Numbered from the stretch's first letter, positions 5,422 through 45,664 are shown. The stretch: 64,000 nt of DNA from an uncultured Gemmatimonadales bacterium (GCA_963701965.1 OY969695.1:1664001-1728000), one strand, 5' to 3'. Translations and numbers: made by a program. Notes: generated by a model not told the origin, from the sequence alone.

Positions 5422-5879
5422 CTACCAAGCGCTCAGATCGACTCCCCTGACGCCAATACTCGGCGCTCGCCTGCCATCGCACGCTGGCGTCGAAGGTGGT
5501 CGATCGGCGTGACTTGTCCTACCGCCGTCGCTGTCAGGTTGGATAAGAAACAACAGCGAGTGTGTGATGGGCTCGAGGCGTCAGTGTCGCCAACCCCCGA
5601 GCGAAGCACCTCGATGTCCTTCGCGCTGCGGCCACGAAGCGGTGTGTTCCGCACAATGGCATACCGACGTACTCGATCGGGCTCATCGCATTAGTGCCAG
5701 TGCCGCGAAGCGTGAGTGGGCTCGTAGTGTCAAGGGCCATTTTTCTGACACAATAGGGCAGAATCATGACATCGAGCACTCACCGCTCCCACGATGCGCC
5801 CGGATACTCTGGCGACTTCCTCAAAGACAACCAACATTGCTGGGAAGTTGGCAACATGGAAAAACACTGGAGAACGTGA

Positions 5880-32909: not shown

Positions 32910-33650
32910 ATGCTTTCGACCAAAAAAATCTACGGTGCGCTGCTCCTGGTCACGGCCAGCGTCGCCGGTGCGCAGGACACGACCAAGACCCCACGACCAC
33001 CCGTCGTGGTGTTTCACGGAGATCTCGGGTACGTCAGCACGACGGGGAATACCCAGGTCTCGACCTTCAACTTCACGGATCAACTCACGATCCACACGAG
33101 CCCCGTCAACAAGATCGATCAGAACCTGGGATGGGTGTACGGCCAGAATGACAATGTGGTGCAGACGAACATCTGGACGGCGTCTCTCCGCGACGAGTAT
33201 GCGCTGACCAAGCAGATCGGTCTCTACGCGCAGGTCGGATTCGATCGCAACCCGTTCGCGGGCATCGATCGCCGCCTGGAGGAAGGCGGGGGCCTGGCGA
33301 TCACGCCGGTCCTGCCGGCGCGGCACAAGCTGGAGTTCGACGCCGGTGCGGCCTACATCGAGCAACGATCGCTGCCCGACAGCACCGACAACCACGCGAC
33401 CGCGCGGGGCGCTGTCACTTACCGCTATACGTTCGGCAAAGACACGTACGCGCAGCAGTCGGTCGAGGCGCTCCCCAGCCTCGAAGAGCGCTCGGACTTT
33501 CGCATCAACTCCGAGACCGACCTCGTCGCCCCGCTCTCGCGTCACTTCGCGATCAAGTTGGGCTACACGATCCACTACGCGAACCTGCCACCGCCGGGCT
33601 TCAAGACGACCGACCGTCTCTTCACGTCGGACCTCCAAGTGACGTTCTGA
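32910..33650 (+). CDS. DUF481 outer-membrane beta-barrel protein
   Basis: Signal peptide, GYVSTTGNT, FAGIDRR, C-terminal F. Confidence 0.85.
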   Translation: MLSTKKIYGALLLVTASVAGAQDTTKTPRPPVVVFHGDLGYVSTTGNTQVSTFNFTDQLTIHTSPVNKIDQNLGWVYGQNDNVVQTNIWTASLRDEYALTKQIGLYAQVGFDRNPFAGIDRRLEEGGGLAITPVLPARHKLEFDAGAAYIEQRSLPDSTDNHATARGAVTYRYTFGKDTYAQQSVEALPSLEERSDFRINSETDLVAPLSRHFAIKLGYTIHYANLPPPGFKTTDRLFTSDLQVTF

Positions 33651-34963
33651 CACTCTCGATGATCTTCGACCAGGGCGTCGTGGCGTAGTGCATGCCGTAC
33701 GCCCGGTCGACATCGAGATGCTCGCGGGCCACGGCGCCGGCCGCCTCCCGCAGATACTCCGGCGTAAACCAGGTCGTGCTATCGTTCGGCGCGAAGAGAT
33801 CGCTGGAGTAGAGCAGCTTGTCGGCCGGCCAATAGACCATCATCTGCGCGCGCCCGTCTCCGCGCGATAGGGCACGATGCGCACCGTGCCGACGTCGACC
33901 GGCGCCGACACCACGCGCCACACGGGTTGCCGCGGCGCCCGCTGCAGTGAATCGGGGAACGTACGGTGGACCGCGCGCAGCGCGCGGGTCAGGATCGGCA
34001 CATTGAGATCGAGCGCGTAGATCGGGATGCCCCGCGCCGCATACTCGCGGATGCCCCATGTGCGGCCACGAGTCCGACGTCGTGATGACGCCCTTGACCG
34101 GCCGTCCCGGATATCGGCGCGCCACTTCGGCGAGCGCCTGCCGCGAATATCCGGAGGAGATCGGCGCCTCCAGAACGAGGATCCCGTCGGGTTGCACGAT
34201 CAGCGACACGTTCCAGGCGCCGGGCAAGAGAACGACGCCGGGCGCGACGTCTTGCGCGCGCTCCCCGTGCAGCACCGCCTCGTCGAGCGAACGGCGGTGC
34301 CGCGCGACGAACATCGCCTGGGTGGCCGAGTCGATGGCGAACGCGCTGTCCGGCACCGGGACGTCGAAGGCGAGCGCGGTGATGGATCGCGCCTCGTCCG
34401 GCAATCCGTTGCGCGTCCATTGGCGCTGCCGCGGCACCCGCACGCCATTGGGCTCCAACGTCCACATCGAGTACTCGTACCGCGTCACGAAGTCCCCCCA
34501 GACGTAGCAGCGCCACGTCCGGTTGGCGCACCAGATCCGGCGCGGCGAGCGCCTCCAACACGACGCGCGTCGGGAAATTCGCGAGCTCCTCATCGAGATC
34601 ATGCACCATCGGGTCGCCGCCGGTCGCCGTCGTGCGCGTCGCGCGCCCCGTCGCCGGCGGCGCGAAGTCCGGTGCTTGCAGCCACCATTCATTCTGCGAG
34701 TATCCCCGGGAGCGGAACGTCACGCGCATGCGCCCGCCAGTGAAGTCGAGCAGCTGCGTCTCGTCTTCGTAGTCCTGGAACCACGGACCCTCGGGGCGCT
34801 CCGACTGCTCCAGCATGTTCCGATGCCCGATGCTGGCGATCTGCACGCTGTGTATCGCGCGCAACCGCGCCTCGCCACCCATGGCGTCGATCGACCGCCG
34901 GATGAGACCGCGCGCCGTCGAGTCTGCCGGCACCACGAGCAGCATCGTCAAGAGAAACGTCAT
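33622..34963 (-). CDS. Metallo-beta-lactamase-fold secreted protein, multiply frameshifted
   Basis: AMGG..RLRAI, GILVLEAP, ITTSDSWPH(M)G, YSSDLF, GMH motifs spread over several frames. Confidence 0.65.
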
Positions 34964-35065
34964 GGGGCGGAGACTGCGGCCTGTCCCCTGCGGTTGCCAC
35001 CATGATGTCGCAAACGGCGGCGCGGGTGTCGCCAGCGGCGCAAAGTTTGCCCCGGCTCCGTTGTC

Positions 35066-35359
35066 ATGGATGAAGTCGTCGTGCAATTCAACGAGATGTT
35101 TAGCGCGAGCGACGGCGTGCCGTATCTGCCCCGCGTCTGCGCCCGCGAAGATGACATCGGCCGCTGGGAGGGCTGGCTCGAGTTCGACTCGCCCTTGGGC
35201 GGGCCCCCGCTCCGCTCGGCGCGCGAGACGGTCCAGCCCAACCGCGCCGATCTCGCCTACTGGGCCGGCGGGCTCACACGGGTGTATCTGGAGGGCGCCC
35301 TGCGGCGCGCCGAGGACGAAACGCGACGCAACTGGTACGAGGATGACCTGAGCGGATAG
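35066..35359 (+). CDS. Conserved-looking hypothetical protein
   Basis: WEGWLEF...RETVQPNR.DL.YWA.GLT.VYLEGAL; good codon bias. Confidence 0.65.
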   Translation: MDEVVVQFNEMFSASDGVPYLPRVCAREDDIGRWEGWLEFDSPLGGPPLRSARETVQPNRADLAYWAGGLTRVYLEGALRRAEDETRRNWYEDDLSG

Positions 35360-35364
35360 GCGGG

Positions 35365-36006
35365 ATGGTGCCATTCTTGAGCACCATGAAAGTGCTCGTC
35401 CTTGGCGCCTCCGGACGCCTGGGCCGCGTCCTCGTGATGCGCGCCCTCTCTGCCGGCCACACCGTCACCGCCTTCACGCGTACGCCGGCACAATATCTGT
35501 CCGGCGATCCATCCGTTCGCATCTACGGCGGCAGCGTCGGCCAACCCCGCGCCGTCCGCGCCGCCGTGCGCGATCAAGATGCGGTCATCTGGGCGGTGGC
35601 GCCGGCGGAGCTGGACGGCCTGCGGCTCGTGCTGCGGGAGATGACCAGCGCGGGGACGCGGAGCGTCATCCACGTGAGTGACGCCGCGGCGAGCTCGGAC
35701 ACGCGCTCCGCGGGGGGCGCGGCCGCGCGGCTCCTGGAGAGCGTCACCGGCCGCTCGCCGGGTCGCGCCGCCCGCGACCGCGAGTCGGTGGTCTCTGATA
35801 GCCCGCTGGAATGGACCATTGTGCGGCCGGCGCGCCTCACCCTCGGCCCCCTCACAGGAACATATGCCGCGACCGTTGATCCGGAGGCCGTCCGCATGAC
35901 GAGCATCTCGCGCGCCGACGTCGCCGCGTTCATTACCACGCAGCTGGCCGACCGCACGTTCGTCGGACAGGCGCCCCATCTAACGTCCACGAGCGGCCGG
36001 GTGTAG
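35365..36006 (+). CDS. NAD(P)H-binding protein (biliverdin reductase B-like)
   Basis: VLGASGRLG, WTIVRPARL, ISRADVAAF. Confidence 0.88.
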   Translation: MVPFLSTMKVLVLGASGRLGRVLVMRALSAGHTVTAFTRTPAQYLSGDPSVRIYGGSVGQPRAVRAAVRDQDAVIWAVAPAELDGLRLVLREMTSAGTRSVIHVSDAAASSDTRSAGGAAARLLESVTGRSPGRAARDRESVVSDSPLEWTIVRPARLTLGPLTGTYAATVDPEAVRMTSISRADVAAFITTQLADRTFVGQAPHLTSTSGRV

Positions 36007-41972: not shown

Positions 41973-42852
41973 TCAGGCGCCGATGCCTTCCGAACCGCGG
42001 GGTACGTGTTGGTCGGCGGGCGTGCCGGCGACCGGCAGGGGAACCGCGATATCGGTGCGGACGAGTCCCGCCGCCACGCGGGCCAGGAAATCGTGGGGCT
42101 CGAGCTGGGTGGCCAGGGACGAGGGCAGGAACCCCGATACCGCCCGGACTTCGTTGGCCAGCCCGCGCGCCGTGGCGTACCCAAGCTTGGCCGCCACATC
42201 GCGCACGCGGGTCGCGCCGGGCGGACCCTGCGACAGGTAGTGATAGGCGCGGACGACGCGCGCCGCCCGCAGCAGCACCCATCCCGACAGCCACCCGGCG
42301 CGATCCAAGGCCTCGTGCAGTCGGCGGCGGTGACGGACGCCGGCCAGCCGGGCGAGATCTTCCACCGTGGTGATCGTATCGGGTGTGCGAAAGAGCTCTT
42401 CGACCGCCCGCGCGACGGCGATCGGCAGCCGCGCCAGCGCCGGACCAAGTCGGGTGAGCAGGATGTCGGCCAGCGCGTCCGCGGGGAGGCTCTCCAGATA
42501 CGCGCGGAACTGCATTGGCGCATCGTCGAAACCCTTGAGCACGAGGTGGCGATGGCCGCGCATGGCGAGCGCCATTCTGGGCCCGCATGGCCGCGGGGGA
42601 CACCGTCGTGTAGCTCACGACGTGGACGGACTCGTGGCGTCCCAGCACGCCGACCAGATCACCGAGCTGCCGGCCGCCCACGAGCGCGGGGTCGACGACG
42701 GCGATATCGACGCGCGAGAGGCGGAGCGCGGCGTCGAGTTCCTCGACCGTGCGGACAACGCGCACGACGTGGCGGCGTCCGGGCACCGCGCGAAACGATG
42801 CCATGAGATGATCGGGGAGCAACGCGACAATCTGCAGGCGGTCCTGCGGCAT
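41973..42852 (-). CDS. Receiver-like domain plus AraC-type HTH regulator (frameshift near 42580)
   Basis: VDIAVVDP...VSYTTVSP N-domain; TVEDLARLAGV...VRDVAAKLGYATARGL C-domain. Confidence 0.75.
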
Positions 42853-42985
42853 CACGTTCAAAGCGCACCGCCCACGCACGACTGTGCCGCGCCCCAGGAC
42901 GTCATCCCAAAACGCCCTCGCGCACCGCACTGTGGACGGGTCCAAACCACGTCGCGTCAACCACTTAAATTATTTGGAGCGCTTA

Positions 42986-43111
42986 ATGTTACGCCGCCTT
43001 TCGATCCTTGCTGCGACCGTCGCCGCGATGACCCTCGCGGCCTGTGCTTCCACCACCGCCCCTACTGCTTCCTGCGGCGGGACCTACGCCGGTGGCTCCA
43101 CGCACTGCTAA
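42986..43111 (+). CDS. 41-aa exported peptide with lipobox and C-terminal Cys-x10-Cys
   Basis: MLRRLSILAATVAAMTLAAC-ASTTAPTASCGGTYAGGSTHC*; GGAG RBS 6 nt upstream. Confidence 0.8.
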   Translation: MLRRLSILAATVAAMTLAACASTTAPTASCGGTYAGGSTHC

Positions 43112-43121
43112 AACGCACGCC

Positions 43122-43154
43122 GTTGGCGCCGGAGTCCTAAGCTCCGGCGCCGAC
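43122..43154. terminator. Hairpin between convergent peptide and TPR genes
   Basis: gttggcgccggag-tcctaag-ctccggcgccgac. Confidence 0.6.
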
Positions 43155-44405
43155 TAACTCGGCGCTCAAGTGCTCTATCGCGTCGGCGACGCGCAAGGCG
43201 GCATTGCCAAGGTCCGGCTGCGCCTGCGGGGCGCTTGATTCTTCCTCGGGCATCGCGTCACGAGCCGCTTCGGCTTCGATTAACCGATCATTCAATTGGT
43301 GGCGCTCCGCAAGCACAATCGCCCGGTCAAACGCGGCACGCGCCTGCTCGTCGCGGCCGAACCGGCGGCAGCCCTGCCCAACGCCGAGCTGATAGTCCAC
43401 CGCGAGACGCGGAGCGAGCGCTTCACCCGCCAGCGTACGGCGGTACCGCTCGAACAACGTCTCCGAGCCAGTCCTGATCGCCAGCTCCATGAGATTGAGC
43501 GTCGCGATCGAGCGGAGAGTCTGATCCTTCGTGCGCGCCTGCAGGAGGAGTAACGCGCGACGAGCGGTGTCTCGCTTGCCGACATCCGCGAAGGCGAGCG
43601 CCAAGTCGTTCAGTACGCGGTCCTGCATGCGCTCTTCACGGTGATGTTCCAGCGCGGCATGCAAAAGCGTAAACCCGCGATCGAAGTCGCTCCGACGCAT
43701 GGCCACGACGCCCTGCTCGTGGAGCGCCAGCGCCATGACGTCGGTCACGGAAGGCACCGCATCCACGACCGGCTTACACTCGACCACGATCTCGCCCAAG
43801 AGTTCATCCGCGCGCGGCAGGTTGCCGCGGCGCAGCACGACGAGCGCCAAACCGTAACGAGACATCAATTCGGTGAATCGTGCGCCGGACTCGTCCGCCA
43901 TCGCCCGCGCCGTCTCGAGCGCCGACTCGGCGTCGACGAAGTTACCAGCCGCGATCGCGCACATCCCGAGTCGCTGCCACGCGTGGGGCACAAGCTCGAG
44001 CTCATTGTCGGACTCGGCAAAGCTCAGAAACGTACGATAGACGTCAATGGCCAGCTCTGATTCACGCTGGTCATGCAAGAGCGCCGCGTATGCAAGGACA
44101 TGCGCAGACACGACCGAGCGACTGCGGCCCCACGACTGGGTGACGGCGTTCACGATCGCGACGAGCGAGTTCTGGATCGGACCTTCCGGCATCTCCCCAA
44201 TCGCCTTGCGCACCGCCGCAACTTCGGTGGGGCGCGGCGCGATCCAGCTGTGCAGCGCTTCAGCCCACTTGTCGACGAGGCGAACCGTGACAAACCCGGC
44301 CGTCGTGGGCTTCCAGCGCGGATCGTCGACATGCATAGACCCAAGCACCTCGAGATAAGCGAGGTGCTCTCCGCGGAGGCGAGTCGGTCGACCCGTGGTC
44401 TGCAT
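43137..44405 (-). CDS. Tetratricopeptide-repeat protein
   Basis: Successive TPR-like helices (AWQRLGMCAIAAGNFVDAESAL, ALHEQGVVAMRRSDFDRG, VLNDLALAFADVG, GVGQGCRRFGRDEQARAAF); no signal peptide. Confidence 0.85.
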   Translation of the reverse strand: MQTTGRPTRLRGEHLAYLEVLGSMHVDDPRWKPTTAGFVTVRLVDKWAEALHSWIAPRPTEVAAVRKAIGEMPEGPIQNSLVAIVNAVTQSWGRSRSVVSAHVLAYAALLHDQRESELAIDVYRTFLSFAESDNELELVPHAWQRLGMCAIAAGNFVDAESALETARAMADESGARFTELMSRYGLALVVLRRGNLPRADELLGEIVVECKPVVDAVPSVTDVMALALHEQGVVAMRRSDFDRGFTLLHAALEHHREERMQDRVLNDLALAFADVGKRDTARRALLLLQARTKDQTLRSIATLNLMELAIRTGSETLFERYRRTLAGEALAPRLAVDYQLGVGQGCRRFGRDEQARAAFDRAIVLAERHQLNDRLIEAEAARDAMPEEESSAPQAQPDLGNAALRVADAIEHLSAELVGAGA

Positions 44406-44608: not shown

Positions 44609-45664
44609 ATGACGCGCAAGCGAATCCTGCTCGGGACCGCCCTCGCACTGCTCCTGGGCGCCGTAGCCTGGCTCGTTGGTGGCGGATCTGGCGACCTGGT
44701 TCTCACCGGTATCGTGACTACTGATGACGTGATCGTCAGCCCGCAGGTTACAGGTCAAATTGGACAACTGCTCGTCGATCAGGGAGACTCGGTCACGCCG
44801 GGCGAGCTCGTCGCTCGACTCGTGCCTGCCGAACTCCAGGCCGATCGCGCGTACTACGCGCATAGCGCCGAAGAAGGGGCCGTACGCGTCCAGTCGAGCG
44901 AAACATCGCTGCGCTTGCAGCAAATGCAAACCAATGATCAGATCAGCCAGGCCGAAGCGTTACTGGCGGCTGCCGTCGCCCAGCAAGCGGAAGCGGCGGC
45001 CAATCTCGACAACGCCAAGCTCACGCGCGATCGCTACGAGGCCCTGGCCAAGACCGGCGGCGTCGCCAAGCAAGAGCTCGATCAACAAGAGAATGGGTAT
45101 CAGGTCGCGGTCGCCCGCGCCAATGCCGCCGACAAACAAGTCGCGGCCCAGCGCGCGGCGCTGAGCATGGCCCGCGCGGCGGCCGAACAGGTCTCGATCA
45201 AGCGCAGCGACCTGTACATGGCGCGCCAGCAGCAGGCCGCCGCGACCGCCCAAGAGACCAAGGCCGACGTCCGCCTGGGATACAGCGAGCTCCGCTCGCC
45301 GATCGCGGGCATCGTCGATGTCCGCGCCGTGCGGAACGGTGAGGTCGTCAACCCGGGTCAACCCGTCGTGACGCTGATCAACCCGGACGCGCTCTGGATT
45401 CGCGCCGACGTCGAGGAGACCTACATCGATCGCGTCCGCCTGGGCGATCACCTGACCGTGCGGCTTCCGTCGGGCGCCACCCGCCAGGGCACGGTCTTCT
45501 ATAGAGGTGTCGACGCGGGCTTCGCGACGCAACGCGACGTGAGCCGCTCCAAGCGCGACATCAAGACGTTCGAGATCCGACTCCGCGTCGACAACCGCGA
45601 CCGCCTGCTGGCGGTCGGCATGACGGCGTACGTGCTCCTGCCGTCGCGCGTGACGCACGGATGA
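44609..45664 (+). CDS. HlyD family efflux periplasmic adaptor
   Basis: N-terminal TM, LLVDQGDSV, LRSPIAGIV, GEVVNPGQPVV. Confidence 0.92.
   Translation: MTRKRILLGTALALLLGAVAWLVGGGSGDLVLTGIVTTDDVIVSPQVTGQIGQLLVDQGDSVTPGELVARLVPAELQADRAYYAHSAEEGAVRVQSSETSLRLQQMQTNDQISQAEALLAAAVAQQAEAAANLDNAKLTRDRYEALAKTGGVAKQELDQQENGYQVAVARANAADKQVAAQRAALSMARAAAEQVSIKRSDLYMARQQQAAATAQETKADVRLGYSELRSPIAGIVDVRAVRNGEVVNPGQPVVTLINPDALWIRADVEETYIDRVRLGDHLTVRLPSGATRQGTVFYRGVDAGFATQRDVSRSKRDIKTFEIRLRVDNRDRLLAVGMTAYVLLPSRVTHG

Follow-up and report, generated by a model that had tools for sequence, protein, structure and literature searches.

A conserved cassette of a mini-lipoprotein, a TPR protein and an AraC-type regulator in Gemmatimonadota: a candidate peptide-signalling circuit

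Gene content of the locus

The locus described here lies within a 64,000 nt stretch of DNA, referred to as the window, from an uncultured Gemmatimonadales bacterium (GCA_963701965.1 OY969695.1:1664001-1728000). Three genes are found there: a 41-aa open reading frame (ORF) for a predicted mini-lipoprotein; a convergent gene for a tetratricopeptide repeat (TPR) protein; and, divergent from the ORF, a gene for a regulator that combines a receiver-like domain with an AraC/XylS-type helix-turn-helix (HTH) (Table 1). A first-pass annotation had proposed that they may form a peptide-receptor circuit analogous to RRNPP quorum sensing. The three genes constitute one conserved cassette and not a chance arrangement. 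Gemmatimonadota possess an outer membrane and abound in soil, and little is known about their regulation. The cassette is real, conserved and apparently undescribed; among the papers listed by literature searches there was neither a description of it nor one joining RRNPP with Gemmatimonadota, with the limit that subscription journals and supplements may hold a genome-mining mention. New in this analysis is a tandem repeat of 21-bp period before the peptide gene.

Every element that the first-pass annotation had assigned to the ORF (ribosome-binding site, signal peptide, LAAC lipobox, Thr/Ala/Pro linker and two-Cys tail) is present where it was placed; the N-terminus is basic and is followed by a hydrophobic core, LAAC and the Thr/Ala/Pro linker. 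The convergence on a TPR protein devoid of a signal peptide likewise stands, as does the hairpin shared by the two genes, although it has no U-tract; none of 200 shuffled sequences was equally stable (z -4.8), and a terminator scan of the region did not call it. Another TPR-peptide pair, at G000:C1 ~644090-644230, has an exact tandem duplication of ~69 nt between its two stop codons.

Table 1. Features of the cassette locus, in coordinates of the window
Feature	Position	Strand	Remarks
Receiver-like and AraC/XylS-type HTH regulator, split by a frameshift	41973..42852	-	frames 42577-42852 (receiver-like) and 41973-42578 (HTH)
One-base insertion site	42575..42576	-	extra base absent from the three orthologues aligned there
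Clade-specific direct repeat, two 12-nt copies (42869-42880, 42890-42901), 21-bp period; candidate AraC-protein operator	42869..42901	+	common to the window and four orthologues
CACTGT, candidate -10-like hexamer in the promoter of the peptide gene	42928..42933	+	four orthologues show the same distance of 38 nt, counted from where the second repeat copy starts; weak, frame picked after the repeat was seen
Ribosome-binding site GGAG	42976..42979	+	a similar word precedes 104/109 peptide starts
Mini-lipoprotein (putative propeptide), 41 aa	42986..43111	+	ATG start; signal peptide 1-19, lipobox Cys20, T-A-P linker, variable tail
Lipobox LAAC, residues 17-20; Cys20 is the predicted acylation and signal peptidase II site	43034..43045	+	box composition over 109 homologues
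Tail CGGTYAGGSTHC, C30-C41, candidate signal; possible 10-residue disulfide loop	43073..43108	+	tail variation among homologues
Hairpin, 14-bp stem, between the convergent stops; TPR stop codon in the loop; no U-tract	43122..43154		shuffling test
TPR protein, 422 aa, putative receptor	43137..44405	-	N-terminal helical region ~15-90, ~seven TPR units ~100-370, C-terminal helix

Conservation and distribution of the cassette

From relatives and the phylum 120 loci were fetched, and the 108 that were unique, closed and had at least 400 nt downstream were kept. As the first-pass annotation had anticipated, a lipobox ORF adjoins the TPR gene in 106 of them (92 with a strict lipobox and 14 with a variant box; 2 loci have none), and the regulator is present in 102; when 1500 long frames were drawn at random from this genome, 7 satisfied the same peptide rule. 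Because the loci are kin and top-scoring matches, these counts overstate independence and show conservation, not independent events. Convergence in all peptide-bearing loci of the phylum follows from the construction of the search. One locus comes from an unpublished genome (G012), on which no conclusion rests.

A scan of genomes of all species yielded 67 named loci, 66 labelled Gemmatimonadota and 1 Actinomycetota; among the 62 that were evaluable, the peptide occurs in 58 and the regulator in 61. For 52 held-out loci, outside the training set, the figures are 48 and 51. The contig labelled Actinomycetota (L261) carries a full cassette with a peptide almost identical to Gemmatimonadaceae ones, and is probably mis-binned. 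No relatives were found in the viral contigs, phages and plasmids searched. The TPR profile matches 171 of 401 sampled Gemmatimonadota genomes at E<=1e-15, weak matches included.

Seventeen TPR-family loci are present in this genome. Eight are accompanied by a convergent lipobox ORF of 38-72 aa; every tail is different, and six contain two Cys. An orientation-blind scan of the whole genome found nine lipobox ORFs of <=75 aa, eight of them convergent with a TPR paralogue.

The genes flanking the cassette vary by lineage, and in 21 wide loci no kinase is conserved and no toxin cargo is seen beside it. Many loci of both families (L124-L140) have a gene for a single-domain receiver after the regulator, and a pilin-type gene is transcribed divergently from the TPR gene in five loci belonging to the second family.

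The peptide family

A Cys following a small residue, at positions 17-27, is found in all 109 peptides, which supports the earlier suggestion of a lipid anchor; a basic N-region, a hydrophobic core and a lipobox with this invariant Cys are family traits. A T-[AG]-P-type tether follows in 107; homologue L025, which has none, looks atypical. The tails are rich in Gly, Ser, Thr and Asn and are clade-specific when laid on the TPR tree. The cyclic signal also suggested agrees with the 68 tails that carry two Cys, in which loops span 6-13 residues, but not with the 40 that carry none (a single tail has one), so a ring would be optional. In five homologues (the G000 paralogue near 1.973 Mb, L208, L220, L221 and L222) a tail unit is tandemly repeated two or three times, which marks a unit of ~8-10 residues.

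Thirteen disjoint peptide pairs of equal length and at least 60% protein identity, a choice that favours silent changes, show 103, 78 and 215 substitutions at codon positions 1, 2 and 3. Counted as synonymous to non-synonymous codons, these pairs give 71:51 for the signal region, 64:34 for the linker and 27:40 for the ten C-terminal residues. The ORF is a real coding gene, and its tail is the fastest-varying part.

The gene is mostly uncalled in annotations, and an exact-match look-up in a 15-billion-protein collection found neither the window peptide nor an orthologue. Metatranscriptomes were set aside as evidence because DNA carry-over is possible; two soil runs held small shares, and contigs at >=99% cover 43274-43653 and 43541-43767 in the TPR gene as well as 44642-44792, the peptide and the frameshift lying outside them.

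Enterococcal sex pheromones derive from lipoprotein signal sequences, and the active piece could similarly be the cleaved signal peptide, released inward by an intramembrane protease, with the tail as a by-product. No import would be required, and the signal region varies too, as the codon counts above show. However, it is the tails that bear clade-specific motifs, paired Cys and tandem repeats, and tail similarity tracks TPR similarity better than signal similarity does (Spearman 0.36 versus 0.23, from kin that are not independent). A pheromone of this origin is considered very improbable.

By size and lipobox layout the mini-lipoprotein could also be a membrane-active effector, lysis-protein or entericidin-like, produced as the output of the regulator and paired with the TPR protein as a control or immunity partner. 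An operator before the peptide gene would fit an output gene. A colicin E1 lysis-protein cluster is among the Atlas feature neighbours, at 0.87, which is a lead only, and the matches to small lipoproteins in NCBIfam are weak and far under cut-off. Lysis/entericidin-type lipoproteins (Lysis_col) share with the peptides a length of ~40-45 aa, the lipobox and a short mature part; unlike them, the cassette has a hypervariable polar tail, a fixed pairing with a TPR gene and no toxin cargo. The tails, polar and rich in Gly, Ser and Asn, differ in length, are repeated in some cases and lack any amphipathic or cationic segment, and a cytoplasmic partner is ill-placed to neutralize an exported lipopeptide. 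Of the explanations considered, an effector is given the least credence.

A longer convergent lipoprotein at G000:C1 ~3564046-3564465 (-), beside TPR paralogue 3562727, contains an internal Cys-Gly-rich-Cys loop that resembles the tails and ends in a cupredoxin-like part (labelled by eye).

The TPR protein

Pfam TPR_12, TPR_2 and TPR_14 match the TPR protein above cut-off, and it has no HTH. On inspection, none of 41 aligned homologues has a hydrophobic N-terminus; conserved residues begin near His14. An alignment-based model is all-helical (pLDDT 92) and was used in place of a single-sequence fold, which was poor (pLDDT 62.5). About seven TPR units can be counted by register, within the five to nine tandem TPR motifs, forming a superhelix with a concave groove, that characterize RRNPP(A) receptors (PMC9765709). 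In the whole-protein model four N-terminal helices occupy residues 15-90, the alignment to RapLS20 starting at model residue 32 and those to RapI and RapH at 73-74.

Structural matches to the model include NprR-NprX (Z 20.1, rmsd 4.8, 274 aligned), RapLS20 (Z 20.0, rmsd 7.5, 323 aligned) and RapH-Spo0F (Z 19.3, rmsd 5.0, 291 aligned), along with OGT (Z 20.1); RapI, phi105 Rap, MalT domain III and RapH-Spo0F all fall at Z 19.3-19.5. Foldseek gives a picture that agrees with this. Identity in the structural alignments is 6-12%, with LGN/Pins ranked above the Rap and NprR matches, and an NCBIfam search of the protein matched no Rap family. The model supports a peptide-binding-type TPR superhelix of Rap size without an HTH, but not RRNPP membership. 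Polar residues are kept at groove positions (R263 in 90%, D267 in 91%, N304 in 58% with E in 34%).

Several fusions and neighbourhoods of the TPR family were recorded. In P0082 an ECF sigma factor (regions 2 and 4) is fused ahead of a full TPR-family domain, which fits a role for the TPR protein in gating transcription factors. A Cys/His-rich domain of ~45 residues (C-x-G-x3-H-x-W...CCNG) is fused to the N-terminus of a subset (G000:C1 paralogues 4337115, 3759819, 4920949, 1856712 and 4790680; proteins P0095, P0113, P0126, P0164 and P0172); it is possibly a metal- or redox-sensing module, and a Pfam scan of the library proteins gave it no match. At L302:3164-8277 (G000:C1 ~4337160-4342280) a peptide-less TPR and AraC pair is immediately followed by genes resembling a lasso-peptide PqqD chaperone and a macrolactam cyclase. 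These matches are under curated cut-offs; the arrangement may represent a regulated RiPP cluster with an eavesdropping receptor.

The regulator and its frameshift

All 20 regulator members match HTH_18 at E<=0.1, with 9e-15 as the best value; the match of the orthologue shown falls under the curated cut-off. The C-terminal double HTH matches the structures of AdpA, RamA and SoxS. Profile comparison found the TPR and regulator profiles to be unrelated.

The regulator gene lies where the first-pass annotation had located it; however, it is not a single open frame, a point missed there, as an extra base interrupts it. The insertion is possibly an assembly error or a recent inactivation (pseudogene). 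The regulator is the sole split gene among 27 query genes of two syntenic loci matching this region; other genes elsewhere in the single-contig assembly are also split, so both origins are possible. Since the regulator is frameshifted, the proposed signalling loop in this window is either mis-assembled or broken. A long secreted-protein gene at window 33622-35374 (-) seems split over two or three frames and is another likely frameshift.

A canonical receiver has a first acidic pair, a phospho-Asp, a Thr/Ser and a Lys. In the regulator the Asp at the phospho-site position is invariant and a Thr follows Tyr82 in 16 of 20 members; the acidic pair and the Lys are not conserved, Pfam Response_reg matches only 2 of 20, weakly, and receiver structures are matched at E 0.005-0.007. 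Judged by these residues, the domain is an atypical receiver and the protein not a canonical response regulator.

These features bear on the possibility that an unlinked membrane sensor kinase reads the peptide and phosphorylates the receiver-like domain, with the TPR protein as a modulator (phosphatase or adaptor) that does not bind peptide. Cyclic peptides are read by kinases in agr systems. The invariant Asp, the Thr, the weak receiver-structure matches and the receiver gene that follows the regulator in many wide loci would all suit such a pathway. Against it stand the lack of the acidic pair and canonical Lys, the paucity of Response_reg matches and the lack of a kinase conserved at the 21 wide loci. 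Moreover, the peptide tracks the TPR gene and not the regulator: all 8 peptides of this genome are TPR-linked and only 3 are found with a regulator. Sensing by a kinase is judged distinctly improbable.

A tandem repeat upstream of the peptide gene

Motif discovery in 100 peptide-regulator spacers returned sites of the type TGTCNCAAAA. Arranged in tandem with a 21-bp period, such sites are found in the peptide promoter at 73 of 107 loci, against 0 of 535 shuffled sequences. They share the strand of the peptide gene and mostly lie 80-105 nt ahead of its start; of 86 distances between neighbouring sites, 73 equal 21. The tandem site is also present in 42 of the 52 held-out loci, and it precedes 15 of 108 TPR genes. 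A -10-like A..T hexamer follows at an offset of 38 in 34, and of 39 in 40, of the 73 promoters, which would place the half-sites roughly between -71 and -55 and between -50 and -34.

The XylS site, TGCA-N6-GGNTA-N6-TGCA-N6-GGNTA, has the same 21-bp period (PMC4514859). As at XylS/Pm, a double HTH is matched with two direct-repeat half-sites of this period, ending next to the -35 region (PMC4514859, PMC5481539). The family tandem repeat is likely to be the operator of the AraC-type regulator, and its AraC/XylS layout points to autoinduction. Unlike XylS and AraC, the regulator has an N-terminal domain that is receiver-like and not sugar- or aromatic-binding, its input being likely a protein partner.

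A strict form of the operator pattern was matched in 45 of 121 genomes, versus 3 control matches in 2 genomes. Of the site-bearing genomes, 43 have a TPR match, and in the other two the site lies beside a regulator at a contig end; a site is missing from all 18 genomes of the same family that are listed as having no TPR match. Genes after stand-alone sites, labelled by eye, include those for lipoproteins, a TonB-type receptor, a pilin and phospholipase D-like, DUF262-like and methylase-like proteins. With downstream genes so mixed, no common function was accepted; secreted and envelope proteins as an output of the circuit are a weak lead. Two stand-alone tandem matches, L181:1604 and L189:1536, are just behind tRNA-Ala and tRNA-Sec genes, perhaps at island edges.

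Some of the stand-alone matches (L144, L146, L149, L181, L182 and L184) precede secreted proteins or lipoproteins, as would suit a cell-autonomous monitor of export or of the envelope, in which the mini-lipoprotein is a sentinel substrate: upon failure of Sec export, acylation or Lol traffic, its unexported tail or a degradation product would stay in or come back to the cytoplasm of the same cell, bind the TPR protein and switch the regulator without any intercellular signal. Release across the outer membrane would not be required, and the N-terminal part of the peptide is a generic lipoprotein tether with its lipobox Cys kept throughout. Other stand-alone sites, however, precede cytoplasmic or unrelated genes, and a monitor has no need for eight paralogues with eight tails, for fast tail change among close relatives or for tail repeats. 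This explanation is regarded as unlikely.

Recognition helices in the window clade (the window and four orthologues) differ from those of the family. The clade-specific repeat in Table 1, which was spotted by eye, post hoc, in four or five close relatives of one clade, is suggestive of an operator particular to this clade. A pattern made from it gave one genome match versus one control match, and hence no regulon can be drawn from it. The best family tandem operator match of the genome (10.2 and 17.6 bits) is at window 5734-5771 (-), with an integrase fragment nearby and no clear gene downstream.

Comparison with known systems

Cytoplasmic TPR receptors for peptide signals have been described as a Firmicutes trait (PMC9765709, PMC10075063). 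The nearest working model for the cassette is RapLS20-Phr*LS20-RcoLS20 (PMC7641744, PMC9765709): RapLS20, from plasmid pLS20, is a TPR protein with no DNA binding of its own that sequesters a transcription factor, and its peptide switches RapLS20 off (PMC7641744). As in the Rap-Phr systems of Bacillus, an HTH-less TPR protein of similar size and fold (Z 19-20) is encoded beside a short secreted propeptide with a variable C-terminal part, a separate transcription factor is the likely partner, and many paralogous pairs occur together with orphan receptors in one genome. The occasional tandem pheromone copies also have a counterpart in duplicated Phr (PMC11343458).

In contrast to Rap-Phr, the host is a diderm, the genes are convergent and not co-transcribed, and the tail is often bracketed by two Cys. 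The propeptide is always a predicted lipoprotein, whereas SPII-type peptides make up 211 of 2,734 predicted RRNPPA peptides (PMC9765709) and RRNPP_detector accepts Sec/SPII peptides only at its relaxed level (PMC10075063). The likely partner joins an atypical receiver to an AraC-type activator, and a probable tandem operator precedes the peptide gene; the TPR protein has no clear sequence homology to Rap, and nothing was found in the phages and plasmids searched.

NprR-NprX, PlcR-PapR and AloR-AloP also join a TPR receptor to an adjacent exported peptide of 30-60 aa, with up to 16 paralogous Alo loci per genome (PMC9765709; PMC7425212). Those receptors carry their own HTH, whereas DNA binding in the cassette would come from the separate AraC protein.

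The cassette shares with RRNPP systems the TPR superhelix, a putative receptor without a signal peptide and an adjacent short propeptide with a secretion signal. A co-directional two-gene operon of receptor and peptide is a hallmark of many RRNPP members (PMC7425212), whereas all 8 pairs in the orientation-blind scan are convergent; nor is the host among the Bacillota or their mobile elements, 66 of 67 loci being from Gemmatimonadota. On layout and fold evidence the cassette appears to work like RRNPP; because the host and operon features differ and homology is uncertain, it is not filed as a member.

Proposed circuit

The preferred explanation, held with modest confidence, is a Rap-Phr-like circuit in a diderm phylum, in which the tail is clipped, imported and read by a TPR protein that gates an AraC activator. 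The mini-lipoprotein would be exported by Sec, acylated at Cys20 and cleaved by signal peptidase II. Proteolysis behind the T-[AG]-P tether would then shed a Gly/Ser/Asn-rich tail of 9-12 residues, disulfide-closed in ~6 of 10 families, and an Opp/Dpp-type transporter may take it up for binding in the TPR groove. In the manner of Rap proteins and their partners, the HTH-less TPR protein may hold the regulator by the latter's atypical receiver domain; that the TPR protein acts as an anti-activator rather than a co-activator is a sign chosen purely by analogy. Freed regulator would bind the tandem half-sites adjacent to the -35 region, raising transcription of the peptide gene (positive feedback), and in some lineages presumably that of the TPR gene also (negative feedback). 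Signal peptidase II, LolA, family-5 solute-binding proteins and oligopeptide ABC ATPase tails are encoded in the genome, none of them linked to the cassette.

In addition to the kinship of the loci, several observations weigh against this circuit. A lipid-anchored and possibly disulfide-closed peptide needs a protease and transport over two membranes, and across the 21 wide loci neither a protease gene nor a transporter gene is conserved next to the cassette. Ordinary large lipoproteins of the genome share the signal peptide and the T-[AG]-P tether, so that only the tail is special. Nine of the 17 TPR paralogues here have no micro-peptide and five of the eight pairs have no regulator. The family operator matrix finds no site in this window (best 1.2 bits) nor in 23 other loci. 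The top structural matches of the TPR model are generic eukaryotic TPRs (LGN/Pins, Z 23.5), MalT domain III (Z 19.3) scores level with Rap, and RapJ matches the TPR profile at E 4e-5 only, under many unrelated TPRs; because generic TPRs and MalT score as well or better, the fold does not single out RRNPP. The proposal of a peptide-receptor circuit in a diderm draws support from gene linkage, coding evolution and the TPR fold but not from the groove residues, whose co-variation with the tail was not above random (partial r 0.087, null 0.045 +/- 0.049, 59 of 300 random sets as good).

A broader and more tentative version, given somewhat short of an even chance, is that peptide quorum sensing evolved independently and phylum-wide in these diderms, with a hypervariable, often disulfide-closed tail shed from a lipid-anchored propeptide and passed back into the cytoplasm, an HTH-less TPR receptor and AraC re-induction from the 21-bp operator, which would give a single soil genome as many as eight private channels along with several eavesdropping receptors. 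If the circuit is as proposed, Gemmatimonadota would have a cell-to-cell signal, and a new peptide route would be defined by a lipoprotein precursor, an optional ring and two membranes. The short synthetic tails, soluble receptor, regulator and predicted operator would then form a complete testable kit that could be rebuilt in a laboratory host.

Other features of the window

At ~1727-1800 of the window a GA dinucleotide run reads as an (RE)n ORF.
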